Positions 10,501-46,259 of a DNA stretch of 64,000 nt are shown piece by piece. Source of the DNA: an uncultured Candidatus Saccharibacteria bacterium. Lineage in GTDB: Bacteria; Patescibacteriota; Minisyncoccia; Phycocordibacterales; UBA12088. Numbering within the stretch: the stretch's first letter is position 1; every line of letters starts with the position of its first letter. The notes beneath the pieces are model-generated. The model was given only the letters and a program-made list of their open reading frames with translations, did not search any database and was not told the DNA's origin. The stretch covers positions 153,300 to 217,299 of the forward strand of contig CAZLUD010000002.1 of NCBI GenBank assembly GCA_964562615.1, in the 5' to 3' direction. The translations under genes and the position numbers were made by a program.

Positions 10501-11319
10501 CTCGCTCTTTTGCTCATTTACATTAGTAGATGCTCTATTTGAGTATCCATCATAAGAATACCCAGTGATGGTGTAGTCACCAGACTCTATAGAGACAAAC
10601 TCGCTGTGGCTTGTTGGTGATCCTGCTTGTCCAGCAATAAGACGCACAAACGCGGTGCCGTCTTTAAACTCAACAATAGTTCTTCCCGCTTGTGGAGTAA
10701 GTGGACAGCTAGGAGTGTAAAACTCTGTGCTTGGAGTAGTTGGGGTAGTAGGAGTGGTTGGTGTGGTAGGAACATCAATTCGTTCAAATGATGCGCACAC
10801 AGGATACACACTGTTTGGCGAACCATTTTTATCAAAGGTGACATGCTGCGCGCGTAGCATCGCAATATCGTTTTTGAGTACAAATCCAGTTTCAACCACG
10901 GTAGTTTTGGTGTCTTGCTCTACAAAATCAGCAAGGTCTGAAGTACCCTTTGCCCATTGCCAGGTAGACTGTGCTCCACTTTCAAAACCTATCGAATATG
11001 ATTCGCTAGGTTGCTTTGCAGTTTGTGTTCTTCCGGTGTATCCATCAAATGATACTGCGGTGATTTTGTAGGTACCCTTAGGTAGATTTGTTGCGGCACG
11101 TACATACCCGTCCTCGTAGGTTCCGGTTGAAATGAGCTTCTTTGTTGGAAACGTCACTATAGTAGTGTTTGCTCCCGCAACAAGTGGACATGTTGGAACC
11201 GAAAAATCAGACGTTCCAGTCCCTGTCGCAGAAACTCGGTCAGATGAAAGGATCACGCTCACGGCGGATACGACAATCATCAAAGAAAGAAATGCTGATC
11301 CAATAAGTACTCGTTTCAT
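4543..11319 (-). CDS. giant modular cell-surface protein (2258 aa): signal peptide, repeat modules, VPYTG motif, TM helix, long cytoplasmic tail
   Basis: Uninterrupted 6.8 kb ORF with an N-terminal signal peptide (MKRVLIGSAFLSLMIVVSAVSVIL). Architecture is A-A-A-B-B-A-B-B-B-A-SdrD-B-A-B-B-B. It then has CPNGNCGGGGG, a T/P linker, VYLSQVPYTGF, a TM helix (aa 1808-1831) and a 427-aa tail. Confidence 0.85.
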   Translation of the reverse strand: MKRVLIGSAFLSLMIVVSAVSVILSSDRVSATGTGTSDFSVPTCPLVAGANTTIVTFPTKKLISTGTYEDGYVRAATNLPKGTYKITAVSFDGYTGRTQTAKQPSESYSIGFESGAQSTWQWAKGTSDLADFVEQDTKTTVVETGFVLKNDIAMLRAQHVTFDKNGSPNSVYPVCASFERIDVPTTPTTPTTPTTPSTEFYTPSCPLTPQAGRTIVEFKDGTAFVRLIAGQAGSPTSHSEFVSIESGDYTITGYSYDGYSNRASTNVNEQKSEQWYLDIYNGVGNTIATYGPTADLADGVKEASVTANFATNALIGEPIAKITARHATPNTKYNSVVPVCVAFDKKPVAGPTCPLTPSADTTIVNFGTTVLRSDLSQSSAIAGPVAVNLAAGQYDVTLASYDDHTHKVGQVQPNERWFVELNNGVQSNAISDLADSQDYLTQKVNSALTIGSASSVKAVHAAYPDTSSPNSIIPICAAFKKLPDTPKPPTCTMSANPTTISVGGSTTLSWSSTNTKSASIDGGVGSVSTTGTKVVSPTQTTTYTGTFVGTDNSVITCSQTIVVVPLADPICQMTITPSTIVKGGLATLSWTTSNVASASISDGVGQVAVNGSKSVSPSDTTTYIGTFVGTNGKTITCSAKVTVTPPPTSPTCPIAPRDGLTVVPITTNIITANSSQASATVGPFALNLPQGSYRVYLASYDDHTNKPGQVQPNESWELALRSITGSTIVTTSAIADLPDTQDYLVELVNSNLKIDGDVKTGVVTHAAYPNSNPNSIVPICAAFEKLPEPKDPICTLTGFPTTITKGGEVLLSWTSQHALSASLDNNIGSIEVQGSKTVAPTETTTYRATFMGEAGKSVTCVTTIVVNPTPNPVCALSASPSSIQTGGTATLVWTSSNTSSGSIDNGVGSIAVNGSSAVSPTQTTTYTATFIGNEGKTISCSTTITVSPKPEPVCTLTVNPGTITQGGVATLVWTTENASSVTINNGVGSVAVNGSQSVTPSQSTTYTASVTGVNGKVITCSAPIVVLPPPQTPTCPLVGGADKILIDFGDGLIRSDQTKANSEKGPFTTEIPSGIYKVTLASFDEHSAKPGQVQPDEKWFLSFARFGGLISLGTSGTIGDLPDDQNYLSQVVNDRLEVTQTITQVTAKHAAYPNSNPNSIIPICALFERVESLAPAKISGCVYVDANKNKVKDTNDAPIPGTTISLTGTTVSGSAVTKTTTTGADGCYLFDNLEQGTYTVIESQPAGYEDWFDQIGTKGGNDTVNDVFSSIVLAPGDHSERNNFGELRIIPDPICAMSVDKSVIKLGESITLTWNGTNVTSVTIDNGVGSVGASGTKNLSPTTNVTYTGTFVGENGKTITCSAPVVVKQDTLPVCPLSPSQGITIVNLSTGKIRSDQSGSAAETAPVPAELAKGTYKVTLASFDYHTDRTIVTEPKEQWFVKLRDLVGSTIVSTNASPDLADTKDYDVSVVNSELVISQDTKTAVAVHAAYPDASSTNDIVPLCAAFEKLPEPQDPVCAMSVAPSTIKKGESATITWTSQNTFGASIDSGIGAIALNGSKVVSPEVTTEYTGTFTGEKGKTVTCKVTVTVETPIDPPFCTLVASPQTLAKAGDAATLTWTTLRATSISIDKGIGSVTANNSTQVTPTQTTTYTLTATGATGAVVTCQATVTVPNKVPVCEMSITPNRVVEGQNTEVTLSWSGTNVTKTTITPDLNDVSVSGSAKFVANSSKLYTGVFSGEFGTTTCTARIDLQPLCPNGNCGGGGGLNPPRVTIASTTTPPSITPPTDQPLAFVYLSQVPYTGFEAGPLLTFFFWLTVLVVTGIMTHYLIVRQYLHRFIRVAFTRAGEYLDEREVEKMRYVDSPREAATEYPRAPQQEIHNHYAHSHHVSPEEPRYMPAPTHAPRAEAPVTRTNNPPHNLPTGTMQFAAQAQAPAVPADRLWHKEAIADRYLEGVLEKTAYESDVLVSPEGLAQIVAYSDSDEQKARMLLEEMILAAKKLYPREDGWIPLNRERIQALRIATRDIDGARDTRETRRDTEIAHDVPASITTEETVVEAPADTITDKAVEEYAPAAPQASAVASDRFSLERYSRDRDGYHGTNRSTSQNQMPRERFSAHVTPHSEPRHERAVSSSHEGLTTISAIATFISWLAEGKEEKSFNFLRKLAGQGYDAQNFLMQVVTELDDVFKNRIEGGRRANRDLLEVTAIWSNGELEHIIEILSGGVDYTYSHSQTGAKIAIAKVVDFIEKQKGRTFRKGE
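4546..5826 (-). other. predicted cytoplasmic tail of the giant protein (aa 1832-2258)
   Basis: It follows the single TM helix. The TM-proximal flank is rich in Arg/His (VRQYLHRFIRVAFTR). Two helical-looking segments are separated by P/A/R/E-rich, apparently disordered linkers. Confidence 0.5.
5911..5925 (-). other. VPYTG sortase-signal-like motif (aa 1799-1803) immediately before the TM helix
   Basis: Codons gtg ccg tac aca gga read on the minus strand. The position relative to the hydrophobic helix mimics LPXTG-type sorting signals. Confidence 0.45.
6061..11190 (-). repeat. intragenic protein-module repeats: 6 A modules (about 135 aa) and 9 B modules (about 80 aa)
   Basis: A modules: 10780-11190, 10285-10707, 9865-10263, 8956-9366, 7804-8217, 6784-7197. 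B modules: 9385-9849 (x2), 8239-8940 (x3), 7216-7437 (x1), 6061-6768 (x3). Recurrent strings are CPL..TIV, HAAYPNSNPNSIxPICAAFEKLPEP and C..S..P..I..GG.ATL.W.S.N..S.SID.G.G.V...GS..VSP...TTY...F.G..GK..TC. Confidence 0.85.
7462..7788 (-). other. SdrD B-like / Cna-B-type domain inside the giant protein (aa 1178-1286)
   Basis: ISGCVYVDANKNKVKDTNDAPIPGTTISLTG...TGADGCYLFDNLEQGTYTVIESQPAGYE...NNFGE matches the SdrD-B-like pattern (G.V..D.N.N...D......G..V.L......T...G.Y.F..L..G.Y.V). Confidence 0.7.
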
Positions 11320-33923: not shown

Positions 33924-33936
33924 GGTTTTTAGTATA

Positions 33937-33970
33937 CAAAAATGCGCCTCGCGGAGCGAGGCGCATTTTT
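33937..33970. terminator. bidirectional terminator downstream of rpmE
   Basis: aaaaatgcgcctcgc-ggag-cgaggcgcattttt, flanked by gtatac on both sides. Confidence 0.7.
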
Positions 33971-33986
33971 GTATACGGGTGCATCA

Positions 33987-34256: not shown

Positions 34257-34317
34257 GTCAGAAAACTATACCAGAGAAGCGATAAAAGGCAAGAATGTCT
34301 AGCCAGTGACAAGGTCA

Positions 34318-34782
34318 CTACCACAACCGTGCTGCTGGGGTATAAATCGCGCCTGTTCTTTGGCCGGTTCTTGCAGGATCCTGTAGCGGGCAAGATCCGG
34401 GGGTACATGCTTCAAGGGCTCCGTGGATAAGTATCTTGTAGTCAACTCCATTAGAGTAGTAGAGATAACAAATACCACTACTTGCCGTACTTGGGAGTGG
34501 GTCCATTGGCATACTAGAAATGTAGGTAGGTACAATACCCGGAATACCAGCGCCACCATAACAGCCAGGACTAGTTCCTTGCCACCCACCCACGACAGGA
34601 TAGTTTCCAAAATCGTTATAGTACATTTCAACTGCTCTTTCTATTTGGCGTACGTCAGCAATACGCCGAGCGTCTCTAGCTTTACCACGCGCACTATTAA
34701 GTGACGCAAACACTACTGAGGAAAGAAGTCCTATGATCGCAATGACGACAAGTAGTTCAATAAGGGTAAATCCTCTTTTCAT
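34318..34782 (-). CDS. type IV pilin-like protein (prepilin N-terminal cleavage/methylation domain), paralog P1
   Basis: MKRG|FTLIELLVVIAIIGLLSSVVFASLNSAR class III signal, with a variable Cys-containing C-terminal domain. Confidence 0.85.
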   Translation of the reverse strand: MKRGFTLIELLVVIAIIGLLSSVVFASLNSARGKARDARRIADVRQIERAVEMYYNDFGNYPVVGGWQGTSPGCYGGAGIPGIVPTYISSMPMDPLPSTASSGICYLYYSNGVDYKILIHGALEACTPGSCPLQDPARTGQRTGAIYTPAARLW

Positions 34783-34797
34783 AAATAAAGTAATGTA

Positions 34798-35274
34798 CTA
34801 GTAACCCCGAGCTCCGGTAGACCAATTACCATACGCCCAACAATCTCTCACTGGGTCTATAAGTCCTGGTGCTTGCGCCTTTACCCCCGCGCAATCTTGA
34901 GGATTATGCCAAATGAGTTTGTAGTCAGCTCCATTGTCTGAACGATAAATATAATTATCACTACAATTAGTAGAATTATTTGGTGACCGAGGGAGTGTAG
35001 GGATATAGTTTGGAGCAAGTCCTGGTATCCAGTTTGTCGTACTGTTGCCCCAGCAGGTATACAACCCGTCATATCTCCCCGATGTGCTTGGGTACGCATT
35101 ATTGTCGTTATAATACAATTCTAGTGCTATTTTTAGCTGCTCAAGATCTGCGATACTTCGAGCATTTCGAGCTTTTTGTCGTGCACTATTAAGTGACGCA
35201 AACACCACCGAAGAGAGTAGTCCGATAATAGCAATCACAACAAGTAGTTCAATGAGGGTGAATCCTCTTTTCAT
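34798..35274 (-). CDS. type IV pilin-like protein, paralog P2
   Basis: MKRG|FTLIELLVVIAIIGLLSSVVFASLNSAR. In tandem with P1, separated by a 15-nt spacer. Confidence 0.85.
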   Translation of the reverse strand: MKRGFTLIELLVVIAIIGLLSSVVFASLNSARQKARNARSIADLEQLKIALELYYNDNNAYPSTSGRYDGLYTCWGNSTTNWIPGLAPNYIPTLPRSPNNSTNCSDNYIYRSDNGADYKLIWHNPQDCAGVKAQAPGLIDPVRDCWAYGNWSTGARGY

Positions 35275-35297: not shown

Positions 35298-36707
35298 CTA
35301 TTCTCGAGAAAGGATATCTAGTTGTTTTTGGAAGTATGCTGCATGCTCCATCACCCCATCACCATAAAAGGCATAGGCGGGCTTGGTGGCATTACCCCAC
35401 CCCGCAAAGTATCTAAGAGCAGCGAGTCGCTCTGCGGCATACGTGCCAGCATCTGCACCATTATCCATCATGAGTACCCCGCTTGCCATAAAGGCATCAG
35501 CGTTTTTCCATGGATCAGAGGGGCTATTTTTGCCAAGAAGTTTTCGTATTCTGTCTTTGCTTGCAGAATATTCCCATGGCCCCGCCCAAAATTCATCCCA
35601 GCTCATTGTACGCTTTGCATTATTACAATCGTTGGTTTTTGAATTGATATAACCGCCATAACACGCCCACGTTGAAGGGATAAACTGTGCCGGCCCCATA
35701 GCGCCGCCCCACCCGTACCCTGGTTGTTTTGATACTGGCATTCTGTCTGGGTTGTAGCCAAGGGTAGAGGTTATTGCCTGAAAGAGTGGCCTATCTCGAG
35801 TAGGGTGCATATCCTCCTTCCATGTACCGGTACCAAGATACTCACCAAGCCTTGTCTCTTGTTTTAATACCCCAAGGATAAGCGCGGGGCGTACCCCCGT
35901 TGCCTTACCTGCTTGCCCTGCAAAGGTAACCGCATCACCAAAAGGTATCGCCGCAGAGTCTCGTAGTGAAAATAGCTCTGAACGAATTTCTGCAGCACTC
36001 TTTTCTTTTTGGTTGATAAGTGCTTGATATGATTTTTCTTGTCCTTTTGTTACAGAAAGAATATTTTGCTTTTGCTTTTCTTGTTGTTCAATTTTCTGCT
36101 TTTCAAGTAATTGCAGATTACGAAGCTCAGTTTCGTCAGAGCGTTTTGATTCAAGGGTGCTCTTTGCCTCTTCTGTGGTTACGACGGTATTTTCTATTTC
36201 TTCAAATGAATCTTGTAGGGCAATCTTTAATTGTGTAAACGAATCTAATTCTTCAAATACATCTGAAAGTGATTGGTTGCCAATAATAATCTCAACCATC
36301 GTAAGATCATCTATCTGATCTGTTCTACGTATGAGCTGCGCAAGAGAATTTTTCTCTCGCGTGAGTTTATCAGCAAGGCTGCCAATGGTGACCAGCTTTT
36401 CGCCTATATCGCCATTGATTTGTTGGATAGCAAGATCGCGTTGTCGTATGGCTAGCTTAGCTTTTGCAATTTGTGCATCAAGAATAGCAACGTCTCTCTC
36501 AAGCGAGACTCGCTCTTTTTGTTTACCTTCTAGTAGTACTCCCTGCGCTTGTATCTCCTTTTCTATCTGCTGTAATTGCGCTTCAAGCTCAGCGCGGCGC
36601 CGTGCTACATCTTCACTAGTTACCTGTGCTTGAAGGGTAGGCGCGTACGAATACACACCCATGCACAGTGAAAGTATAGTGATTGTGATATATCCAAAAC
36701 GCTTCAT
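35298..36707 (-). CDS. secreted coiled-coil protein with C-terminal lytic transglycosylase-like domain
   Basis: Signal peptide, about 250 aa of heptad-rich coiled coil, then LGVLKQETRLGEYLG (catalytic Glu context) and GAMGPAQFIPSTW, typical of SLT/MltB-type transglycosylases. Confidence 0.7.
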   Translation of the reverse strand: MKRFGYITITILSLCMGVYSYAPTLQAQVTSEDVARRRAELEAQLQQIEKEIQAQGVLLEGKQKERVSLERDVAILDAQIAKAKLAIRQRDLAIQQINGDIGEKLVTIGSLADKLTREKNSLAQLIRRTDQIDDLTMVEIIIGNQSLSDVFEELDSFTQLKIALQDSFEEIENTVVTTEEAKSTLESKRSDETELRNLQLLEKQKIEQQEKQKQNILSVTKGQEKSYQALINQKEKSAAEIRSELFSLRDSAAIPFGDAVTFAGQAGKATGVRPALILGVLKQETRLGEYLGTGTWKEDMHPTRDRPLFQAITSTLGYNPDRMPVSKQPGYGWGGAMGPAQFIPSTWACYGGYINSKTNDCNNAKRTMSWDEFWAGPWEYSASKDRIRKLLGKNSPSDPWKNADAFMASGVLMMDNGADAGTYAAERLAALRYFAGWGNATKPAYAFYGDGVMEHAAYFQKQLDILSRE

Positions 36708-36727: not shown

Positions 36728-36759
36728 AAACAACACACCCCTTAAGGGGTGTGTTGTTT
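36728..36759 (-). terminator. terminator hairpin downstream of rplY
   Basis: aaacaacacacccc-ttaa-ggggtgtgttgttt. Confidence 0.6.
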
Positions 36760-37431: not shown

Positions 37432-37500
37432 ACCGCAAAACTATACCTAATTATGGATATTTGGCAACCCACACGAGGTAGTATTACTAATATAATACGG

Positions 37501-38076
37501 TTACCACCCACTGCAGGTGCCTACGCCAATACAATAGTATGGGTCATTACAACCTCCGTTATTGTTATAGTAACTACCGTCCAAATCCCCTGCAAGGCTC
37601 TGATTATTAGCATTTTCAAGACGTACAGCGAGTCGATAACTCTGACCAGTACCGCATCCTGATGGCCACGCATAATAATAGGTTGGGTCCGCATCTGAAA
37701 ACCCTGATGGACTATCTTGTGGGTCTTGAGGAACCTCAGACATAAATACCGGTCGAGAAGATAGACCAAATCCACACGATGCATCACTTGCGGTTTCTAG
37801 ACATTGCGCAAAGTAATCCCAATGCTGATCCCATGTAGGTGCTCCGGGACTACTTGGATAGCGTCCATGGGTGTCATAAAACAATTCTAGTGCGGTGCGA
37901 ATCTGCTGAAAGTCTGCTATACGTTTTGCATCACGTGCTTTACTGCGCGCGCTATTAAGTGACGCAAACACCACCGAAGAGAGTAGTCCGATGATAGCAA
38001 TGACAACAAGAAGCTCGATGAGAGTAAATCCCATCGTGGAGGATTGTCTATGATTTCTCTGTAACAAATTATGCAT
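37501..38076 (-). CDS. type IV pilin-like protein, paralog P3
   Basis: Leader MHNLLQRNHRQSSTMG|FTLIELLVVIAIIGLLSSVVFASLNSAR. The longer ORF to 38157 would run into the divergent kinase gene. Confidence 0.8.
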   Translation of the reverse strand: MHNLLQRNHRQSSTMGFTLIELLVVIAIIGLLSSVVFASLNSARSKARDAKRIADFQQIRTALELFYDTHGRYPSSPGAPTWDQHWDYFAQCLETASDASCGFGLSSRPVFMSEVPQDPQDSPSGFSDADPTYYYAWPSGCGTGQSYRLAVRLENANNQSLAGDLDGSYYNNNGGCNDPYYCIGVGTCSGW

Positions 38077-38132
38077 AACTGCTACACTATATATACAGCA
38101 ATAATAGTATATCAGCTTACCAGTATTTACAC

Positions 38133-39128
38133 ATGGAAAAACTTGATTTTGTAGCAATTGGCGACATCGTAAATGATGAATTCATTGAGCTCTCACCAGA
38201 GTGGACTAAAGTAGTAACAGATACTGAAAGTGGGCGCGAGCTCCTTGCTATGAATTTTGGAGACAAAATTGAGTTTAAAGACTTTGTCATTGTTCCTGCA
38301 GTAGGCAATAGTCCAAATGCTGCAGTAAGTGCGCACCGCTTGGGTCTGCGTAGCGCGCTAGTAACTGATATGGGAGATGATGACGAGGGCGATCAGATGA
38401 TGCGCCAACTTGAGCACGAGGGTGTTGATAGACAATTTATACGAAGACATCCAGGGAAAAAATCAAATCATCATTACGTACTACGCCTTGCCCCTGAACG
38501 AACCATTTTGATTAAGCACGAAGAGTACCCCTACTCACTTCCTGATCTTGGTGAGCCATCATGGATATATTTCAGCTCGGTAGGAAATAACTCCCTCCCG
38601 TATCACCAGGAAATTGCCACGTATGTAAAAAATCACCCAGCAAGCAAATTGGTATTTCAGCCTGGATCGTTCCAAATCAAATTAGGATACGAAGTACTTA
38701 AATCAATATATGAAGCATCTACATTATTCTTTTGTAACAAAGAAGAAGCGCAGAGTATTGTAGGAAAAAAGGAGCTTGATATAAAACAATTACTGACAGC
38801 AATCCATGAAAAGGGTCCAAAAATCGTAGTGATTACTGATGGCCCACGAGGTGCCTACGCAAGCGATGGTACAAACGCCTGGCACATGCCTATGTATCCT
38901 GACATTGCCCCACCTGTTGATAGAACTGGTGCTGGTGATTCATTCTCTTCAACATTTACAAGCGCGCTTGCATTAGGACATGACATACCAACGGCATTGA
39001 GTTGGGGTCCAATTAACTCAATGTCTGTAGTACAAGAGATTGGCGCACAAAAGGGACTCCTCTCTCAAGAAGCAATACAGCAATACCTCCAAAACGCACC
39101 TGCAGAGTACACTCCGACGCTCCTATAG
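38133..39128 (+). CDS. PfkB-family carbohydrate/nucleoside kinase (ribokinase-like)
   Basis: GDIVNDEF near the N-terminus, and the PfkB signature 2 context VDRTGAGDSFSSTFTSAL. Confidence 0.85.
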   Translation: MEKLDFVAIGDIVNDEFIELSPEWTKVVTDTESGRELLAMNFGDKIEFKDFVIVPAVGNSPNAAVSAHRLGLRSALVTDMGDDDEGDQMMRQLEHEGVDRQFIRRHPGKKSNHHYVLRLAPERTILIKHEEYPYSLPDLGEPSWIYFSSVGNNSLPYHQEIATYVKNHPASKLVFQPGSFQIKLGYEVLKSIYEASTLFFCNKEEAQSIVGKKELDIKQLLTAIHEKGPKIVVITDGPRGAYASDGTNAWHMPMYPDIAPPVDRTGAGDSFSSTFTSALALGHDIPTALSWGPINSMSVVQEIGAQKGLLSQEAIQQYLQNAPAEYTPTLL

Positions 39129-39135
39129 CAAAAAG

Positions 39136-39336
39136 CTATTCTTTGTAGAGATCAACATCATCAAAATCTCTGCCCTTTAAGATTTGATCATTTTGTACTC
39201 GTGTTGCTGAGATATCAGCAATGAATGCTTCGCTGTGCGATACTTTGTAAATAAGAAACATCGCACCACCCGCTAGTAATCCGAGAAATATTCCACTGAA
39301 CCAAAAATTTAATTTTATTGCGTGTAAATTTCTCAT
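39136..39336 (-). CDS. small membrane protein (66 aa)
   Basis: MRNLHAIKLNFWFSGIFLGLLAGGAMFLIY, then a soluble tail. The TTG-extended ORF has no support. Confidence 0.4.
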   Translation of the reverse strand: MRNLHAIKLNFWFSGIFLGLLAGGAMFLIYKVSHSEAFIADISATRVQNDQILKGRDFDDVDLYKE

Positions 39337-39349
39337 GGTGATTATCTTA

Positions 39350-39481
39350 TTAATACACAAGCATTGAGTGGGATATTGTCCAAAGAAAGTAGTATGCTCC
39401 TGCGGTGACTGATGATATAAAAAACCATGCAACAATTGGTCTTACTTCGTATGCCTTCATTGCTGAGAATTTCTTTTTCAT
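39350..39481 (-). CDS. possible 43-aa membrane peptide (not in the ORF track)
   Basis: ATG lies 2 nt after the transketolase stop. Translation: MKKKFSAMKAYEVRPIVAWFFISSVTAGAYYFLWTISHSMLVY, ending at TAA (39350-39352). Confidence 0.3.
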   Translation of the reverse strand: MKKKFSAMKAYEVRPIVAWFFISSVTAGAYYFLWTISHSMLVY

Positions 39482-39483
39482 GA

Positions 39484-40476
39484 TTACGCTTGTGTTAAGG
39501 AAATAGCTTTTTGTATGATACTAGGCACATCTAGCCCATACGCAGTGTATAACTCTTGTGTGGTACCAGACTGGCCAAATCGGTTTTGTACCCCTACAAA
39601 CGCCATCTTTGTTGGTCGATTGAGTGATAGGGTTTCTGCTACCGCTCCTCCGAGCCCGGCAATCACTTGATGCTCTTCAACGGTAAGGATGGCGTTAGTT
39701 TCATTTGCAAGTGCTACTATCGCATCGGTATCAAGAGGTTTTATAGTATGTACTGAAAGTACCACCGAGCTAATACCAAGACGAGTCTCTAATTCAACCG
39801 CAGCCTGTATGGCCTGATACACCATGCTTCCCATCGCAATGATACCTACCGTTGGCGCATTTCCTTGCCACACTCTATAGGCCTTCCCTATTTCAAATGG
39901 AGTATCTTTGGTAGTAAGTAATGGGGTATTTTCTCTTGCAAATCTAAGGTACATGGGGCGCTTACTTGTTGCAGCAGCAAGGGTTGCCTTTCTTGCTTCT
40001 TCCATGTCGGATGGGACAATCACGGTCATATTAGGTATCACCCGCATAAGCGCGACATCCTCAAGTGCTTGATGTGTTGCACCATCAGGACCCACCGAGA
40101 GGCCGGCATGCATACCACAAACCACTACTGGTTGCTCATTAAGCGCAATGGTGGTGCGTATCTGTTCATTATTGCGTCCAGGATTAAAAGCGGCGTAGGA
40201 GGTGATAAACGGCACCTTTCCCATTGATGCCATACCACTTGCTACTCCTGCAAGATTTTGTTCGGCAACCCCAAGCTCAATGTACCTATCAGGAAATTTT
40301 TCTTTAAACCAATGACTGCGGGTACTCTCTGCCAAGTCCGCACACAGCACTACTACATTGTGGTCACGCTCACCCGCCTCTACTACCCCCTTACCAAAAC
40401 CATCGCGTGTAGCACCTTCTTCTCTCGCGGTGGCATCAAGTATTCCTTTATGTAATCGGGCTTCTCCTACCAGCAT
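39484..40476 (-). CDS. transketolase, C-terminal (pyrimidine-binding) subunit
   Basis: ATRDGFGKGVVEAG, FPDRYIELGVAEQNLAGVASGMA. Forms a split transketolase with the gene upstream. Confidence 0.9.
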   Translation of the reverse strand: MLVGEARLHKGILDATAREEGATRDGFGKGVVEAGERDHNVVVLCADLAESTRSHWFKEKFPDRYIELGVAEQNLAGVASGMASMGKVPFITSYAAFNPGRNNEQIRTTIALNEQPVVVCGMHAGLSVGPDGATHQALEDVALMRVIPNMTVIVPSDMEEARKATLAAATSKRPMYLRFARENTPLLTTKDTPFEIGKAYRVWQGNAPTVGIIAMGSMVYQAIQAAVELETRLGISSVVLSVHTIKPLDTDAIVALANETNAILTVEEHQVIAGLGGAVAETLSLNRPTKMAFVGVQNRFGQSGTTQELYTAYGLDVPSIIQKAISLTQA

Positions 40477-40477
40477 A

Positions 40478-41341
40478 TTAGTCGTGGTTACTTGGAGTTA
40501 TCTTTCCTCCTAATGTACGAAGTTCTTTGAGCCATCTTAGTTCTTGCTCTTTATTTGGTGGCATACCATGCCATTTATAATCGTACTCGATCTCTTTTAT
40601 TCCCTTACCGGCTATTGCGTGCGCAATAATAAGCGTGGGCTTTTCGTACACTGCTTTTGCTTGTTCTACCGCATCAACAATTGCCTCCATGTTGTGCGCG
40701 TCTATATCAATAACATTCCAATTAAATGCTTCGTACTTGTCTTTGAGTGGCTCAAGAGGCATCACATCTTCGGTCATGCCGTTTATTTGTATATTGTTTC
40801 TGTCTATTATAGCGGTGAGATTTGATAGCTTGTACTTACCCGCAAACATAACCGCCTCCCACACATTACCTGCATCCTGCTCACCATCACCCATCATGCA
40901 ATACGTGCGAAATGGTTTTTTATCCATTCGGGCGGCAAGTGCAATTCCTGCTGCTTGAGAAAGTCCAGTACCCAACGGACCAGAAGTGGTTTCCATTTCT
41001 GGTAACAAAATACGTTCAGGGTGTCCCTGCATACGTGATCCAAATTTTCTAAGTGTTTTAGCTTCTTCAACACTAAAATAACCCGCAAGCGCCATCGTTG
41101 CGTACCGTATAGGAACAATATGTCCGTTAGAGAGGATGAATCTATCCCTCTCCTCAAACATTGGTTCTTTTGGCGAATGATTTAATATATGAAAATAAAA
41201 TGCAGTAAACACATCCGCCATACCAAGCGGACCTGCGGTGTGCCCTGACCCAGCATCCTCAAGCATGTCGATAAGCAATTGCCGTACTTCGTTTGCTTTG
41301 TTTTCAAGAAAAAGTCTTTTTTCTTCTGTGAGATATGCCAT
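40478..41341 (-). CDS. transketolase, N-terminal (TPP-binding) subunit
   Basis: GSGHTAGPLGMADVFTAFYF, SNGHIVPIRYA, MMGDGEQDAGNVWEA. Confidence 0.9.
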   Translation of the reverse strand: MAYLTEEKRLFLENKANEVRQLLIDMLEDAGSGHTAGPLGMADVFTAFYFHILNHSPKEPMFEERDRFILSNGHIVPIRYATMALAGYFSVEEAKTLRKFGSRMQGHPERILLPEMETTSGPLGTGLSQAAGIALAARMDKKPFRTYCMMGDGEQDAGNVWEAVMFAGKYKLSNLTAIIDRNNIQINGMTEDVMPLEPLKDKYEAFNWNVIDIDAHNMEAIVDAVEQAKAVYEKPTLIIAHAIAGKGIKEIEYDYKWHGMPPNKEQELRWLKELRTLGGKITPSNHD

Positions 41342-41384
41342 TACTACTATGATACCTCAAATAGACGCTTTCGGTATCCACACA

Positions 41385-41858
41385 CTAGCGTTCAAAGCCT
41401 CCTAAGACATAATCAAATTCTCCTTGCCAGTATCGTGATGGACAACTCCATCCAGGTGAATCTGGGTGTGGGTTAGGAGATGTCTCCATGTCCCGTACCC
41501 CAAGTACAAAATATGCCCCACGAGCACTATCGCACCCTGCATAGCCCGCTGGGTACCGGTAGTAATTGTATCCTTGGCAGTCAGCAGTAAATCCCTCGTC
41601 GATGGGCACTCTCCCTCCAAAATAGGTGTCCATACCCCTTCCGTTAAGTAGTGGGTATGTACGGTTGCCATTATCCCACCCACCGCATCCATCAAAATCT
41701 GAATCTGGGTAGGCGTTATAATCTGAATAATACAACGCGAGCGCTTTTACGATTTCTTGAATCTCTGCCAATCGTGCGGCATCTCGTGCCTTTGTGCGCG
41801 CACTATTAAGCGAGGCAAATACCACCGATGAAAGTAGTCCGATGATGGCGATAACCAC
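41385..41858 (-). CDS. type IV pilin-like paralog P4 lacking a canonical start codon and leader (possible pseudogene or atypical initiation)
   Basis: Homology (SGA-FTLIELLVVIAIIGLLSSVVFASLNSAR) extends in frame up to 41888, where it abuts the rpe stop. The codons between the in-frame TGA and FTLIE are AGC ATA AGC GGT GCG, with no ATG/GTG/TTG. The first ATG (41858) falls inside the hydrophobic helix. Confidence 0.55.
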   Translation of the reverse strand: MVIAIIGLLSSVVFASLNSARTKARDAARLAEIQEIVKALALYYSDYNAYPDSDFDGCGGWDNGNRTYPLLNGRGMDTYFGGRVPIDEGFTADCQGYNYYRYPAGYAGCDSARGAYFVLGVRDMETSPNPHPDSPGWSCPSRYWQGEFDYVLGGFER

Positions 41859-41887
41859 AAGTAGCTCAATGAGGGTAAACGCACCGC

Positions 41888-42583
41888 TTATGCTTCATGG
41901 ATAGCGTCTTCTGCTATGGTGAGTAATGTGTGGTACGCATCTTTTGGTGACGCATCTGCAAAGATTGCTGACCCTGCGGCAAAGTGCGTGGCGCCTGCTG
42001 TGATTAGTTTTTTAATGGTGCGCTTACTAACACCAATATCCACTCCAATCACAACCTCGCTCATTGCATGTATACGCGAGATGATGTCATATACTCGCTC
42101 ATCAAGTGATGTACCCTGTCTACCTATAGTATCGCTTCCCATTACTTGGAGAAGGTCAATCTCATTGAGTAATGTCTCATAACCTTGTGACGATGGGGTA
42201 ATTGCAAGACCTACTCGTGTCCCGCGCTCGCGCGCACGACTAATACATTCACTTAGTTCACTTGCTGAGCATGAGGTAAAGTGAAATATAAGTGTTGACG
42301 ACCCGGCATCAATCCATGCATCAATATGCTCTTTTGGATTTGCTACCATAAGGTCAATTTCATACTCAACTCTATCCCATTTTGGAAGACCTGTATCTTG
42401 CGCGAGAATTTCTTGCCACTCACCATCTGCCTTAGCACCTATCGGCCACGTTGATGGTGTCGCAAACACACCATCAACAATATCAATTTGTATATGCGTT
42501 GCAGGAGGTGCAATAAGAGAGACTTTTTCGCTCAGATCTGCGTATGACGTTGGCAATATGGCGGGTAAAAGCTGGATAGTCAT
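41888..42583 (-). CDS. rpe: ribulose-phosphate 3-epimerase-like TIM-barrel protein
   Basis: THIQIDIVDGVF (the H-x-D...DG metal/active-site context), DLMV, VGLAITP, DLLQVM, a GxD...G phosphate-binding end, and an insertion after the first strand. Confidence 0.7.
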   Translation of the reverse strand: MTIQLLPAILPTSYADLSEKVSLIAPPATHIQIDIVDGVFATPSTWPIGAKADGEWQEILAQDTGLPKWDRVEYEIDLMVANPKEHIDAWIDAGSSTLIFHFTSCSASELSECISRARERGTRVGLAITPSSQGYETLLNEIDLLQVMGSDTIGRQGTSLDERVYDIISRIHAMSEVVIGVDIGVSKRTIKKLITAGATHFAAGSAIFADASPKDAYHTLLTIAEDAIHEA

Positions 42584-42593
42584 ATACGTACAG

Positions 42594-43100
42594 TTATCGC
42601 GAACAAACGGCGTAATTCATATTATACCCTGGGTTAACTGGTACTGTGGCAAAACGAGCAGTATCCTCAGGAGTAGGACTTTCAAGCTGTGCGTACACGC
42701 ACACACTCGTCTGTGATCCATATGGGTGATAAATCATGTAATGATTGCCAGGATCTGGATGCTTTATTTCACCTGATGTAAAACCTGCGTTCATAAGTGC
42801 TCTTGAAACAGACAATGCATAGCTTCCAGTGTCTTGATAATCAAACCAACCACATGAGCATCCCTGCCACCCTGACCCAGCAACTTGAAATGTATTATAC
42901 GTATCATAATACAATTGGAGCGCAGTCATTGCCTGCGAAAGATCTTGCTTTCGCTTTGCATCTCGCGCCTTTCCACGAGCACTATTAAGCGACGCAAATA
43001 CCACCGATGAAAGTAGCCCGATGATGGCGATAACCACGAGTAGCTCAATGAGGGTAAATCCTTTTTTGTTTTTTGCGCGCTGTTGATAATAGGTAAACAT
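42594..43100 (-). CDS. type IV pilin-like protein, paralog P5
   Basis: Leader MFTYYQQRAKNKKG|FTLIELLVVIAIIGLLSSVVFASLNSAR. Confidence 0.85.
   Translation of the reverse strand: MFTYYQQRAKNKKGFTLIELLVVIAIIGLLSSVVFASLNSARGKARDAKRKQDLSQAMTALQLYYDTYNTFQVAGSGWQGCSCGWFDYQDTGSYALSVSRALMNAGFTSGEIKHPDPGNHYMIYHPYGSQTSVCVYAQLESPTPEDTARFATVPVNPGYNMNYAVCSR
42974..43052 (-). repeat. 79-nt segment identical to 44495..44573 (pilin constant region)
   Basis: cacgagcactattaagcgacgcaaataccaccgatgaaagtagcccgatgatggcgataaccacgagtagctcaatgag occurs in both P5 and P6. P4 differs at 3 positions over the same span. Confidence 0.9.
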
Positions 43101-43204
43101 TGGTATTCTCTAAGAAATAAAATAGTACATTAATAGTAACATACCCTTGCTTTTTTTTATTTTTTGTATAGTATTAATCATACAAATGGCCACTAGGCCC
43201 CCGA

Positions 43205-43228
43205 GAAACCCCGCTTAGGCGGGGTTTC
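43205..43228 (-). terminator. hairpin 5 nt downstream of the mazF-like stop (no clear U-tract on the minus strand)
   Basis: gaaaccccgc-ttag-gcggggtttc. Confidence 0.4.
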
Positions 43229-43233
43229 GACTT

Positions 43234-43620
43234 TTATAACTTTGGAAAGAATTGCTGAACTTGAGCCAAAATTTTCTTGAACTGATTTTTCGGTAATTTA
43301 TACATAAGACGTTCTAGACGTTTGCTACTAACAAGTCTAAGTTGAGAAAGGATAACTGCCGATCCTTCTTGTCCGCCAATCGGAAAATAATACTGATTTC
43401 GCTTATCTGATGTAGTAAGTGGAAGTGCCCAAAAAACGTCCCTATTAAATTTCTTTATTACCAGAACGGGCCTTTCGAACTTTTCTCCACCATCTTGCTC
43501 ATACCCCACGTTTAGCCCAAGCGAACACCACCATATCTCTCGCTCATGAAAGAACGGAACATTCTCTCTTTCATGAATAATTTTCTTTTTCTTATTCCAG
43601 ACTTCAAAATCTTTTTTCAT
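43234..43620 (-). CDS. PemK/MazF-family toxin-like protein
   Basis: REIWWCSLGLNVGYEQDGGEKFERPVLVIKKF...ALPLTT...SAVILSQLRLVSSKRL aligns by eye with the MazF/EndoA pattern (G.EQ.G.RPVL.I ... P.T ... S..L..Q.R....RL). Confidence 0.7.
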   Translation of the reverse strand: MKKDFEVWNKKKKIIHERENVPFFHEREIWWCSLGLNVGYEQDGGEKFERPVLVIKKFNRDVFWALPLTTSDKRNQYYFPIGGQEGSAVILSQLRLVSSKRLERLMYKLPKNQFKKILAQVQQFFPKL

Positions 43621-43628
43621 GCTACCAC

Positions 43629-44078
43629 CTATAACGTATCAAGCTTGTGATTACGTCTACTATGTCGCTCCTCATTTGGAAAAATTGTCGTAAGAAATAT
43701 TTTAACCGCCGCCTTTGCCTCATCATGAGTCAAAAACCTTGCGCCGAGTGATAACGCATTTGCATCATTATGCTCTCTACTCAAGGTTATAAGCTCAAGG
43801 TTGTTGGTATTGTAAGATACTGCTCGTACCCCCTTAAAACGGTTTGCCATAATCGCCTCTCCATACCCTGATCCACCAAGTATGATTGCTCGAGTGTCTT
43901 CATCTGCGTGTGAGAGTTCTTTTGCAGCAAGTGCAATGTAGTCATTGTAATCATCATCCGCGACAAGAGCACTTGCTCCCATATCAACAACTTCGTGCCC
44001 TAATACATGAGCTACATACTCAACAAGCACCTCTTTTAGAGCGAAGCCTGCGTGATCTGTTGCAAATAATATTTTCAT
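43629..44078 (-). CDS. rpiB: ribose-5-phosphate isomerase B
   Basis: MKILFATDHAGFALKEVL, ILGGSGYGEAIMANRFKGVRA (RpiB/LacA/LacB family). Confidence 0.9.
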   Translation of the reverse strand: MKILFATDHAGFALKEVLVEYVAHVLGHEVVDMGASALVADDDYNDYIALAAKELSHADEDTRAIILGGSGYGEAIMANRFKGVRAVSYNTNNLELITLSREHNDANALSLGARFLTHDEAKAAVKIFLTTIFPNEERHSRRNHKLDTL

Positions 44079-44087
44079 AAATGAATT

Positions 44088-44621
44088 TTAGTGGTCAGCA
44101 AACATATACGGGCTATAGCCGTAGCCGCCTCCCGCATAACTGCACCAATAAGTTTCTCCTCCCCAATCATGATATCGCCAACCTCGTACCGCGCATCGCT
44201 CAGGATGACTTGTGTTTTCAAATTGTCCAACGAGGTCATATTTTTGACCTGAACCAGAGCCGTATACATACGTATAGTAGCCATTATTCCACGGACCAGC
44301 ACATGAGGTATTGATAGGATCCTTTGGCAAACTTGGCATATATGCTGTTAAAGCACTTTGTAAGTTATTCCATGACGAATCACAGCTATACCACCACCCT
44401 CCAATTGGATACGCACCATTTGCATCATAATAAAGCTCAAGCGCTATTCTTACCTGCTGTAAATCAGCCTGTCTTTTTGCATCTCGCGCCTTTGCACGAG
44501 CACTATTAAGCGACGCAAATACCACCGATGAAAGTAGCCCGATGATGGCGATAACCACGAGTAGCTCAATGAGTGTAAACCCCTTTCTTGTATTATTACT
44601 TAATGAAGAGAAAGTACCCAT
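44088..44621 (-). CDS. type IV pilin-like protein, paralog P6
   Basis: Leader MGTFSSLSNNTRKG|FTLIELLVVIAIIGLLSSVVFASLNSAR. Confidence 0.85.
   Translation of the reverse strand: MGTFSSLSNNTRKGFTLIELLVVIAIIGLLSSVVFASLNSARAKARDAKRQADLQQVRIALELYYDANGAYPIGGWWYSCDSSWNNLQSALTAYMPSLPKDPINTSCAGPWNNGYYTYVYGSGSGQKYDLVGQFENTSHPERCAVRGWRYHDWGGETYWCSYAGGGYGYSPYMFADH
44495..44573 (-). repeat. 79-nt segment identical to 42974..43052 (pilin constant region)
   Basis: Direct comparison of the two stretches in the sequence shows no mismatch. Confidence 0.9.
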
Positions 44622-44626
44622 TATAG

Positions 44627-45664
44627 TTATATATACTTTCCCGCTTCTTTGACGTGCTGTATAAGCGAGTGAGTGTAGCCCATTTCATTGTCGTACCACG
44701 CAAGTACCTTAACAAGGTCACCATCTACCACCTGCGTAAGGGAGAGATCCGCTATTGAGGCAAAGGGCTGTCCCAACACATCACTTGATACTATAGGTTC
44801 TTCTGTGAATGAAAACACATCTTTCCACCGAGGAGTAAGTGCCGCTTCTTTAAGTGCGGTGTTTACTTCTGCTACTGAGGTACGTCTTTTTGCAACAAAT
44901 GTAATATCAGCAATTGACCCTGCGATTACAGGCACTCGCATTGCCACCCCATCAAATTTTCCTGCAAGATCGGTAATAGCCTTGGTGGTAGCAACCGCTG
45001 CGCCGGTAGTGGTGGGTACAATGTTGTGTGCTGCAGCTCTCCCTTCTTTCCAATCTTTTGGTTTGGTACCGTCGACAATAGATTGACTTGCGGTATAAGC
45101 ATGGGTGGTGTTAAGCATTGCCTTTTCTATGCCAATAGCCTCATGCAATATTTGTATCACAGGAGACACGGCATTAGTGGTGCATGATGCATTAGAAGAT
45201 ATATCTGCGTCTTTAAGAAGCTCGGTATTAATACCCATTAGCGCGGTAACTCCAACAATTCCATTTGGTGCCTCGTCTTTTACCGGAGCGCTGATAACCA
45301 CTCGTTTAGCTCCTGCCTCAAGATGTACTCGCGCCTTTTCATAACTTGCAAATACACCGGTAGATTCAAGGACTATATCAATATCTAATTCACCCCACGG
45401 CAACATGGTGGGATCTTTTTCTGATAAAAATCTCGTATGATTACCCTCAACATCCATAAACACCGCACTCCCCTCCTTTTTTATTTTTGGGTCAAACCCG
45501 CTTCGCCCATACACCGTGTCGTATTTAAGCAGATACGCAAGATTTTCTGCGTCGCCTAAGTCATTAATGGCGATTATTTGTAATTCAGGAATATTTTTAG
45601 CAACACTAAAAAATGCCCTTCCTATTCTTCCAAATCCATTTATTGCTACTCGTATTCTTTTCAT
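44627..45664 (-). CDS. gap: glyceraldehyde-3-phosphate dehydrogenase
   Basis: VAINGFGRIGR, SNASCTTNAVSP (active-site Cys) and WYDNEMGY. Confidence 0.95.
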   Translation of the reverse strand: MKRIRVAINGFGRIGRAFFSVAKNIPELQIIAINDLGDAENLAYLLKYDTVYGRSGFDPKIKKEGSAVFMDVEGNHTRFLSEKDPTMLPWGELDIDIVLESTGVFASYEKARVHLEAGAKRVVISAPVKDEAPNGIVGVTALMGINTELLKDADISSNASCTTNAVSPVIQILHEAIGIEKAMLNTTHAYTASQSIVDGTKPKDWKEGRAAAHNIVPTTTGAAVATTKAITDLAGKFDGVAMRVPVIAGSIADITFVAKRRTSVAEVNTALKEAALTPRWKDVFSFTEEPIVSSDVLGQPFASIADLSLTQVVDGDLVKVLAWYDNEMGYTHSLIQHVKEAGKYI

Positions 45665-45728
45665 TGTATCTAGTATACATTACTTTTTTTCAACATATCA
45701 CCTTTATTCCCATTCTTTTGTTCTGCCG

Positions 45729-46259
45729 TTATATACCCCCCGTCGTTACTTTATAATTTGGTCTATTAGAAGAGCCGCACGCACCCGCCCCACCTCGCAA
45801 CCAATTATCTGTACCACTTGCTGGGTTGAGATTATTTTGGGTCTGATCTTCAAGAGTGGCATACAGCGCGTACTGTGTTGCTCCTGCATTTGGCGCAGAA
45901 CAATTGTTATATACGTTGCTTATATATAAATATGAATTGTTGTAACAGCTTCCATCTTGTGGGTCCTTAGGAAAAGTAGGAAGAAACTGTAACATTTTTG
46001 ACTCCATAGCAAGACTTGTCTCAATTTGATAATCAACCGCTGGACATGCGCTAGATGGGTATCCACCATACGTGTCGTAATACAATTCGAGCCCTTTCTG
46101 AAGCTCAGCTAGATCGGCTTTTCTTCGAGCATCGCGAGCCTTTCCACGCGCGGTATTTAATGACGCAAATACTACCGACGAAAGTAGCCCGATGATGGCG
46201 ATAACCACCAGAAGCTCGATGAGGGTAAATCCATGTTTGTATCTTAAAAATTTATGCAT
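45729..46259 (-). CDS. type IV pilin-like protein, paralog P7
   Basis: Leader MHKFLRYKHG|FTLIELLVVIAIIGLLSSVVFASLNTAR. Confidence 0.85.
   Translation of the reverse strand: MHKFLRYKHGFTLIELLVVIAIIGLLSSVVFASLNTARGKARDARRKADLAELQKGLELYYDTYGGYPSSACPAVDYQIETSLAMESKMLQFLPTFPKDPQDGSCYNNSYLYISNVYNNCSAPNAGATQYALYATLEDQTQNNLNPASGTDNWLRGGAGACGSSNRPNYKVTTGGI

Follow-up and report, generated by a model that had tools for sequence, protein, structure and literature searches.

Type IV pili are believed to play a key part in the attachment of ultrasmall Candidate Phyla Radiation (CPR) bacteria to their hosts and in feeding on them, and CPR genomes are poor in regulators. CPR pilins are abundant, typically lie beside pilBCDMT and are reported to be highly expressed (PMC11623550; PMC9763046; PMC10936435), and in two Paceibacteria genomes pilins reportedly ranked in the top five by expression among signal-peptide genes with no known function (PMC10936435). 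The described pilus loci of Patescibacteria, such as the four of Nanosynbacter lyticus TM7x and the pilin/pilBCDMT clusters of UBA5633, encode prepilins that are short and carry a class III signal peptide, a hydrophobic N-terminal helix and variable globular domains, with many paralogues in each small genome, and in these respects resemble the seven pilin genes (P1 to P7) analysed here, which lie in a 64,000-nucleotide (nt) stretch of contig CAZLUD010000002.1, part of a Patescibacteria (CPR) genome (hereafter the window, the whole stretch that was analysed; gene coordinates are positions within it). In contrast to those loci, where pilins stand beside pilB/C/D/M/T, the pilins of the window are placed between housekeeping genes, with no assembly gene nearby. 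In the open-access full-text literature, we found no description of pilins interleaved with pentose phosphate pathway (PPP) or glycolysis genes, or inside ribosomal-protein operons. That pilins are carried within core operons, the spc ribosomal-protein operon among them, appears to be an undescribed pattern. The reading that we favour, and consider somewhat probable, is that seven ancient pilin paralogues relocated to permissive core-operon junctions, with each downstream gene seeming to keep a leaderless-type promoter of its own.

The pilE/pilS system of Neisseria is similar in its multiple pilin copies, its shared conserved and divergent parts and its gene conversion. There, neither the promoter nor the 5′ coding part is present in the silent pilS copies, and it is variable 3′ parts that conversion moves. 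The window copies, unlike these, are all complete; their conserved 5′ part is evened out by conversion, and their variable domains stay stable from one species to the other. No silent cassette of the pilE/pilS type is present, as every copy carries the complete conserved 5′ coding segment. The comG and type II secretion system (GspG-type) pseudopilins resemble the window genes in the N_methyl motif, in the weak T2SSG match of P2 and in a possible role in DNA uptake. They share an operon with their own ATPase and platform protein, unlike the window block, in which neither an ATPase nor a platform gene is found. Accessory or selfish small genes in operons (toxin–antitoxin genes and four-helix-bundle genes of the 23S-rRNA-IVS type) are held by the same junctions in relatives, and a MazF-like gene lies between RpiB and P5 in the window; unlike such genes, the window pilins are not selfish: they are ancient cell-surface genes, conserved and subject to strong purifying selection. 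A preprint of 2026 about Pam pili, which argues from gene neighbourhood that pilus and metabolism are coupled, was set aside, as it describes a different, chaperone-usher-like system with no bearing on these pilins.

Genes were called from a list of open reading frames (ORFs) and from Pfam. The order on the minus strand, which is the leading strand according to GC skew, is P7-GAPDH-P6-RpiB-MazF-P5-Rpe-P4-TktN-TktC-99aa, after which come PfkB on the plus strand and P3-L25-469aa-P2-P1-L31 (Table 1). This bears out the gene order, strands and identities given in an earlier account made from the letters alone (the sequence-only reading), which had covered positions 37501–46259; P2, P1, L25, the gene for a 469-amino-acid (aa) protein and L31 lie just beyond that interval. 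Its statement that the spacers measure 5–64 nt, except for one of 133 nt, was also essentially right, the spacers from P7 to TktC being 64, 5, 9, 8, 133, 10, −4, 43 and 1 nt, in that order. It had further described a one-for-one alternation of pilin and metabolic genes. The co-oriented interleaving holds, but strict alternation does not, with RpiB and the MazF-like gene paired, TktN and TktC paired, and P2 adjacent to P1. The alternation by itself is not beyond chance: with random placement of four pilins in ten genes, the probability that no two are adjacent is 35/210 = 0.17, and with seven pilins in 18 genes the probability of at most one pilin–pilin adjacency is 0.20. Unlike the alternation, the clustering of the pilins is a non-random feature, as all seven pilin motifs of the 64-kb window are confined to the 12 kb between 34.3 and 46.3 kb (approximate p = 3e-4). 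Neither PilB, PilC, PilD, PilM nor ComEC was recognised among the long ORFs of the window from their N-terminal sequences, most of these ORFs being without a Pfam scan.

Judged by motif, by the predicted fold of P6 and by paralogue divergence, the seven genes are ordinary type IV pilin genes and ancient paralogues. The Pfam family N_methyl (PF07963) matched all seven at 23.8–37.2 bits (cut-off 21.2). An identical 29-aa N-terminal segment, FTLIELLVVIAIIGLLSSVVFASLNSAR, follows leaders ending in G or A in every copy; the junction reads G/FTLIE in six copies, with leaders of 4–16 residues, and A/FTLIE in P4 of both species compared below (the slash marks the end of the leader). The features of a class III signal peptide, namely a short basic leader that ends in Gly or Ala (−1), followed by Phe (+1) and by Glu at position +5, are thus present. 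An AF2 model of P6, built with 66 homologues (pLDDT 93.4), showed a helix at residues 17–68 followed by strands, in the ‘lollipop’ shape of a pilin, and the top 15 matches of a Foldseek search of P6 against the PDB were all pilins or pseudopilins, including PilA4, the gonococcal pilin, EpsG and C. difficile PilA1, although with weak E-values of 0.05–3. The C-terminal cysteine pair of P6, C143 and C160, was at least 90% conserved among the 66 homologues. The globular C-terminal domains of the seven paralogues share 17–37% identity, and their GC content and GC3 (GC at third codon positions) are like those of the housekeeping genes. These two properties indicate that the pilins are old residents rather than recent imports.

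The sole close relative of the locus was found on contig CAYPBQ010000004.1 (L007), from a sister species with a TktN of 96% aa identity; the two loci share approximately 80% nt identity. L007 shows the same interleaved gene order as the window. The pilins of the two species are 92–97% identical, except for P5 (78%), and their ratios of non-synonymous to synonymous substitution (dN/dS) of 0.01–0.08 are like those of housekeeping genes. P7, which lies at the upstream synteny break with L007, is 97% identical to its orthologue, with a dN/dS of 0.011. Since the order is the same across a divergence in which synonymous sites are saturated (dS > 1), and since dN/dS is low, the interleaving must be old and the pilins functional. 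Exact copies of the window TktN were present on metagenome contigs from several samples, and the next relatives after L007 were in metagenome-assembled genomes labelled Kaiserbacteria, Nomurabacteria or Parcubacteria, at no more than 76%. No closer relative above 74% TktN identity was found in a metagenome scan, and a search of 5.8 billion proteins with GAPDH returned one cluster at 98% and then nothing above 71%. L007 and several TPA_asm loci are deposited as ‘Candidatus Saccharibacteria’ or ‘Gammaproteobacteria’; the closest TktN and GAPDH relatives are of the Kaiserbacteria, Nomurabacteria or Parcubacteria type, and these labels look unreliable.

For comparison with more distant relatives, approximately 165 related loci were gathered, anchored on TktN or GAPDH, and the anchors and pilins on them were mapped. 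The backbone GAPDH-RpiB-Rpe-TktN-TktC-(PfkB)-L25-469aa-L31 was widespread in Patescibacteria, and in most loci the genes were contiguous or overlapping, without pilins. The junction was contiguous in 57/79 loci for GAPDH/RpiB, 59/93 for RpiB/Rpe, 95/115 for Rpe/TktN and 77/141 for TktN/TktC, counts among which are some loci shared by both collections. Only 19 of the 141 non-redundant loci carried a pilin within the cluster, and nearly all of these 19 belong to one clade, with a small transmembrane (TM) ORF and one pilin between RpiB and Rpe. One pilin-free locus (L169) reads Obg-GatB-x-GAPDH-RpiB-Rpe-TktN-TktC with gaps of 0–5 nt, and has Obg-GatB upstream as in the window. Comparative synteny, which the sequence-only reading had named as a check, thus showed the interleaving to be kept in L007, with most other relatives free of pilins. 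The arrangement is real and stable, but derived, and the comparison suggests that the pilins are later additions to an ancestral housekeeping string.

The junctions of the relatives also held small ORFs of many other kinds, which fell into 59 similarity groups (37 of them singletons, some possibly spurious) and included small TM genes, PPC-like genes, Cys-rich TM genes, helix-turn-helix (HTH)/toxin pairs and 23S_rRNA_IVP four-helix-bundle genes. All four junctions of one locus (L167, 3023–6450) hold different non-pilin genes, for proteins of 93 aa (TM), 120 aa (23S_rRNA_IVP/bAvd-like), 116 aa (coiled-coil) and 106 aa (TM), and genes of the 23S_rRNA_IVP type occupy three different junctions when the loci are compared. 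In approximately 64 of the 141 loci (for example L024, L033 and L119), the split transketolase has its halves 250–1300 nt apart, and the recurrent TktN/TktC inserts include genes for PPC-like proteins of approximately 140–160 aa and Cys-rich TM proteins of approximately 85 aa, and HTH/toxin pairs.

Full-length homologues of P6 were widespread (46–73% identity), and the contexts of eight of them, from other lineages, were compared. Three lay at other slots of the sugar-phosphate/L25 cluster, in the orders TktN-PILx4-TktC, RpiB-91aa-PIL-Rpe-TktN-PIL and FBA-PIL-PIL-dehydrogenase-PIL-PIL-PIL-L25 (PIL, pilin). Two, from two other lineages of Patescibacteria, lay inside the spc ribosomal-protein operon, co-oriented with it, between L5 and S14/S8: one of these inserts (L174, 6031–8046) comprises a small TM ORF and three tandem pilins, the second of the P6 type (56%) and the third of the P4 type (50%), and the other pilin (L175) is at 7001–7522. 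The other three stood elsewhere or alone. A P1-type orthologue was located directly upstream of L25 in another locus (L171). Five of the eight contexts are thus core housekeeping operons, not pentose-metabolism neighbourhoods only. The presence of P6 and P4 orthologues in other lineages, where the subtypes form tandem arrays, indicates that the pilin subtypes predate the genus of the window, and because the same subfamily sits in the spc operon, it seems to be associated with core housekeeping operons generally, not with pentose metabolism.

A conserved membrane protein of approximately 60–100 aa (...EFGRPP...DLTGKLI.WGLVS..QQAEYVLIG...) directly precedes the pilin or pilins wherever this module sits, at RpiB/Rpe in L023, L037, L047, L048, L053 and others, in L170 (5723–5998) and in L174 (6031–6327). 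It is absent from the window, and may be an unrecognised pilus accessory travelling with the pilins.

A generic sigma-70 scan of the window was replaced by a position-specific test for −10-like boxes before start codons. A TAnnnT hexamer ending 6–10 nt before the start was found for 29 of the 46 window genes, compared with 8% at random positions (p = 1e-20). These boxes are often (T)GGTATAGT-like, for example at 45672–45677, 37440–37445 and 34265–34270, and Shine–Dalgarno-like sequences were not evident in the window. Together, these features suggest mostly leaderless-type transcripts in this genome. Within the block, a −10-like box precedes GAPDH, RpiB, TktN, P3, L25, P2 and L31, and the comparison with L007, which covered GAPDH, TktN, P3, P2 and L31, showed the box to be kept in all five. 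The box of GAPDH is TATACT, 7 nt before the ATG; that of TktN is TATCAT, also 7 nt before the ATG, in a 43-nt spacer conserved in L007; P3 has the conserved CTGATA-18-TATAGT, 9 nt before the ATG. P6, MazF, Rpe, P4 and TktC are without a box, and each begins no more than 10 nt after the upstream stop. Directly 3′ of the MazF-like gene lies a 10-bp G+C-rich hairpin, and the RNA of the 133-nt spacer folds at −38.6 kcal/mol (z = −3.4); this hairpin is probably a transcript boundary. No Rfam family reached threshold in the region, including this spacer, and no tRNA was found in the region. The boxes before GAPDH, RpiB and TktN and the strong hairpin that follows MazF point to a series of short units and not to a single operon. 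The units would be [GAPDH-P6-RpiB-MazF], in which RpiB may have its own start, [P5-Rpe-P4], [TktN-TktC], [P3], [L25], [469aa-P2-P1] and [L31].

The conserved 5′ segment was analysed at the nucleotide level. Within the 29-residue segment, third-codon positions agree at only 10–15 of 29 in most paralogue pairs, and as the N-terminal peptide is identical in spite of this, it must be kept by selection. Some neighbouring copies are much closer. Over the 5′ 87 nt, P5 and P6 of the window are identical at 85/87 positions, compared with 72–74 for orthologue pairs, and the homogenised tract covers the first ~110 nt; P4 matches P5 and P6 at 80/87 each. Likewise, P1 and P2 of L007 agree at 82/87, compared with 73–75 for orthologue pairs. 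That neighbouring paralogues are closer to each other than to their orthologues in this segment indicates gene conversion between neighbours. The sequence-only reading had let pilin cassettes move via the conserved 5′ segment. Recombination between neighbours in this part stands, but nothing shows insertion through it. A repeat search around the pilins recovered only the pilin 5′ segment (family D1), with no flanking repeats, att-like sites or cassette-boundary repeats, and no recombinase gene was found near the pilins.

Two parts of the block depart from the conserved pattern. P4 of the window has no canonical in-frame start: the mature frame opens four codons before A/FTLIE, the leader (41879–41896) reads ATGAAGCATAAGCGG-T-GCGTTTACC, and the ATG at 41896 (MKHKR...) is one frame off A/FTLIE. 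The same leader sequence is found in L001 and in L003, which are independent assemblies. The orthologue in L007 has a normal leader, MRQNSA/FTLIE, and the dN/dS between the two is 0.029. The window leader looks like the result of a 1-nt (T) insertion or frameshift, and P4 could be a recent pseudogene, or could use a non-ATG start or +1 frameshifting. The other part is the stretch of RpiB and the MazF-like gene. RpiB shares 53% identity with the L007 copy (at 7768–8256 of that contig), compared with 92–98% for the flanking genes, and both copies are equally distant (approximately 52–55%) from all relatives, which implies that one lineage carries a xenologous replacement. Found in the window only, the MazF-like gene is absent from L007 and has the lowest GC of the block (0.37). 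It encodes the toxin domain, but, unlike in a MazEF type II module, no antitoxin gene adjoins it: RpiB ends 8 nt upstream, and the 133 nt downstream hold hairpins only. It looks as if foreign DNA had locally replaced this stretch within a conserved string.

In the mechanism that we propose, seven pilins would have been placed, all co-oriented, in junctions of an ancestral string GAPDH-RpiB-Rpe-TktN-TktC ... PfkB-L25-469aa-L31. With a −10-like box 6–10 nt before most starts, transcripts would be of the leaderless type, and a small gene entering between two housekeeping genes would leave the promoter of the downstream gene intact. Housekeeping promoters situated directly at start codons would explain why junctions carry passengers and why the pilins stand as trailing cistrons. 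Transcription of an inserted pilin would come from read-through of the gene upstream, and its translation from close coupling across spacers measuring −4 to 10 nt, so that pilins would be expressed constitutively with the core genes and need no dedicated regulator. The identical 29-aa helix would be kept mainly by purifying selection, presumably because it fits all variants to one assembly machine, with a contribution from occasional gene conversion, and the differing globular domains would give one filament type with several surface variants. The selective benefit of the pilin position and the route of pilin movement are parts of this mechanism that we infer.

Several observations weigh against this reading. 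All seven pilins of the window are in one cluster, and none is found in its other housekeeping strings (RF1-S2-Tsf, PheS-PheT and GatB-Obg-SecA), so that a model in which any core operon may receive a pilin must add local spread. Pilins recur in the sugar-phosphate cluster, being found there in the genus of the window, in the clade with the RpiB/Rpe slot, in L170, in L171 and in the contig with TktN-PILx4-TktC, and this recurrence could reflect function rather than permissiveness. The density of pilins inside the cluster relative to the 10-kb flanks was raised by a ratio of only 1.6 in the 141 non-redundant loci (p = 0.09), a figure in which contig-end cases are undercounted and in which most positive loci come from one clade and represent a single shared insertion. 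The eight contexts of P6 homologues form a small sample, picked for long contigs. Co-transcription and coupled translation are read from spacing and motif matches, and the generic sigma-70 scan gave no enrichment (21 sites, compared with 28.8 in shuffled sequence). Lastly, with P4 of this species lacking a normal start, the assumed expression may not hold for at least one of the embedded pilins.

The sequence-only reading had offered functional coupling as one hypothesis: pili would take up DNA or nucleosides, Rpi, Rpe, Tkt, GAPDH and PfkB would catabolise the ribose, and selection would keep the common transcripts. That pilins recur at different slots of the sugar-phosphate cluster in several lineages, that the PfkB kinase belongs to the cluster and that the layout is under purifying selection in two species would agree with this, as would the view that CPR bacteria scavenge DNA, pili and ComEC being widespread among them (PMC6744442). 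However, in approximately 85% of the non-redundant related loci the metabolic genes stand without pilins, many of these loci having GAPDH-RpiB-Rpe-TktN-TktC contiguous; the pilin slots vary among lineages and the same slots are filled by unrelated small genes; the same pilin subfamily is found in the spc operon or alone; and ComEC, PilB and PilC were not among the genes recognised in the window from the N-terminal sequences of its long ORFs. Contiguous, pilin-free relatives had been named beforehand as evidence contrary to coupling, together with independent promoters and terminators. The former were found; the latter hold in part, as GAPDH, RpiB and TktN seem to keep −10-like boxes and there is no space for one ahead of P6 or P4. 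Coupling to the PPP is thus not supported, and we regard it as decidedly unlikely. It is the strongest form of a proposal that pilus supply is hard-wired to core expression through trailing cistrons of the operons with the most constitutive expression (spc, sugar-phosphate, L25/L31), scaling with growth and carbon flux without a regulator, which we consider unlikely.

A rather unlikely alternative, which shares the permissive junctions with the reading that we favour, is a neutral hot-spot, in which pilins, as the commonest small gene family, fill the junctions by drift without any positional benefit. The 59 groups of junction ORFs, toxin/antitoxin-type and 23S_rRNA_IVP genes among them, the MazF-like gene that is in the window and not in L007, and an alternation that does not exceed chance are all as such drift would leave them, but the arrangement and its seven pilins are under strong purifying selection across saturated synonymous divergence, and every pilin is co-oriented with the operon. 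Moreover, the spacers before P6 and P4 are too short for a separate promoter; these two genes must therefore rely on the host operon to be expressed, and the fact that they are under selection implies that their expression is of consequence. The same evidence bears on the second hypothesis of the sequence-only reading, that pilin cassettes repeatedly insert or duplicate with a metabolic operon as their landing pad, which is supported in part: permissive junctions and 5′ recombination fit it, and repeated or strain-specific insertion does not, as the exact order is shared with L007 and the paralogues are ancient. Conversion tracts of approximately 100 nt between neighbouring paralogues, and an identical N-terminus joined to differing globular domains, would also be expected of a variation system that, as in Neisseria pilE/pilS, uses the shared 5′ segment as a recombination site to swap variable 3′ cassettes into an expressed copy. 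This is very improbable here, given that all copies are complete with leader and N-terminus, with no 5′-truncated silent cassettes, that the tracts span the conserved part and not the variable part, that the C-terminal domains of orthologues vary little from one species to the other (92–97%), and that neither cassette-boundary repeats nor a recombinase gene was found near the pilins. Repeated 5′ segments of approximately 100 nt could also mislead short-read assemblers, but an assembly or binning artefact mixing pilin-rich and metabolic contigs has a negligible chance of explaining the locus, since the same order is present in independent assemblies (JGI 3300043411, SRR13076504/5, SRR8640622 and others) and in a different species (L007).

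If pilins routinely ride in ribosomal and central-metabolic operons, as the favoured reading of pilins in permissive core-operon junctions would have it, pilin expression would be constitutive and growth-coupled. The ‘conserved’ core operons of CPR bacteria would then be much more open to gene insertion than those of other bacteria, for the suggested reason that downstream genes seem to keep leaderless-type promoters. Gene adjacency in CPR genomes should accordingly be read with caution, and not as functional coupling.

Table 1. Positions of the pilin genes and of the features around them in the window (slash, end of the leader)
Feature	Position	Strand	Basis and remarks
P7, type IV pilin-like	45729–46259	−	Pfam N_methyl, E = 4.9e-9; leader MHKFLRYKHG/FTLIE
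GAPDH (gap)	44627–45664	−	Pfam Gp_dh_N/C
P6, pilin	44088–44621	−	Pfam N_methyl; 5 nt after GAPDH
RpiB, ribose-5-phosphate isomerase B	43629–44078	−	Pfam LacAB_rpiB
PemK/MazF-like toxin gene	43234–43620	−	Pfam PemK_toxin, E = 3.5e-12
133-nt spacer, MazF-like gene/P5	43101–43233	−	Holds 10-bp G+C-rich hairpin, 43205–43228
P5, pilin	42594–43100	−	Pfam N_methyl
Rpe-like ribulose-phosphate 3-epimerase	41888–42583	−	Pfam Ribul_P_3_epim, E = 3.3e-20; 10 nt after P5
P4, pilin	41385–41896	−	N_methyl, E = 3.2e-5 on extended frame
TktN, transketolase N-terminal half	40478–41341	−	Pfam Transketolase_N; 43-nt spacer upstream
TktC, transketolase C-terminal half	39484–40476	−	Pfam Transket_pyr and Transketolase_C; 1 nt after TktN
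PfkB-family sugar/nucleoside kinase	38133–39128	+	Pfam PfkB, E = 8.8e-35; divergent from P3
P3, pilin	37501–38076	−	Pfam N_methyl; leader MHNLLQRNHRQSSTMG/FTLIE
Ribosomal protein L25	36781–37431	−	Promoter-like TTGCCA-16-TATAGT; palindrome 36728–36759 downstream
469-aa secreted coiled-coil protein	35298–36707	−	No Pfam family; L25/L31 position kept in relatives
P2, pilin (MKRG/FTLIE)	34798–35274	−	Pfam N_methyl and T2SSG (weak T2SSG match)
P1, pilin (MKRG/FTLIE)	34318–34782	−	Pfam N_methyl; 15 nt after P2
Ribosomal protein L31	33987–34256	−	45 nt upstream (TTGCCT-16-TATAGT) same in L007

Some minor points concern individual features. The start of P3 is probably at 38076 (MHNLLQR..., kept in L007), rather than at the TTG at 38157. 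A label of ‘M23 peptidase’ for the 469-aa gene was dropped, as Pfam gives no family. The palindrome just after L25 is perfect, with 16-nt arms and no loop, and is probably a terminator. A second perfect palindrome, at 33932–33976, downstream of L31 and upstream of RF1, has 21-nt arms and a 3-nt loop, and is likewise probably a terminator. Outside the block, a minus-strand ORF of 2258 aa (4543–11319) begins with an N-terminal signal-like sequence and probably encodes a giant surface protein.

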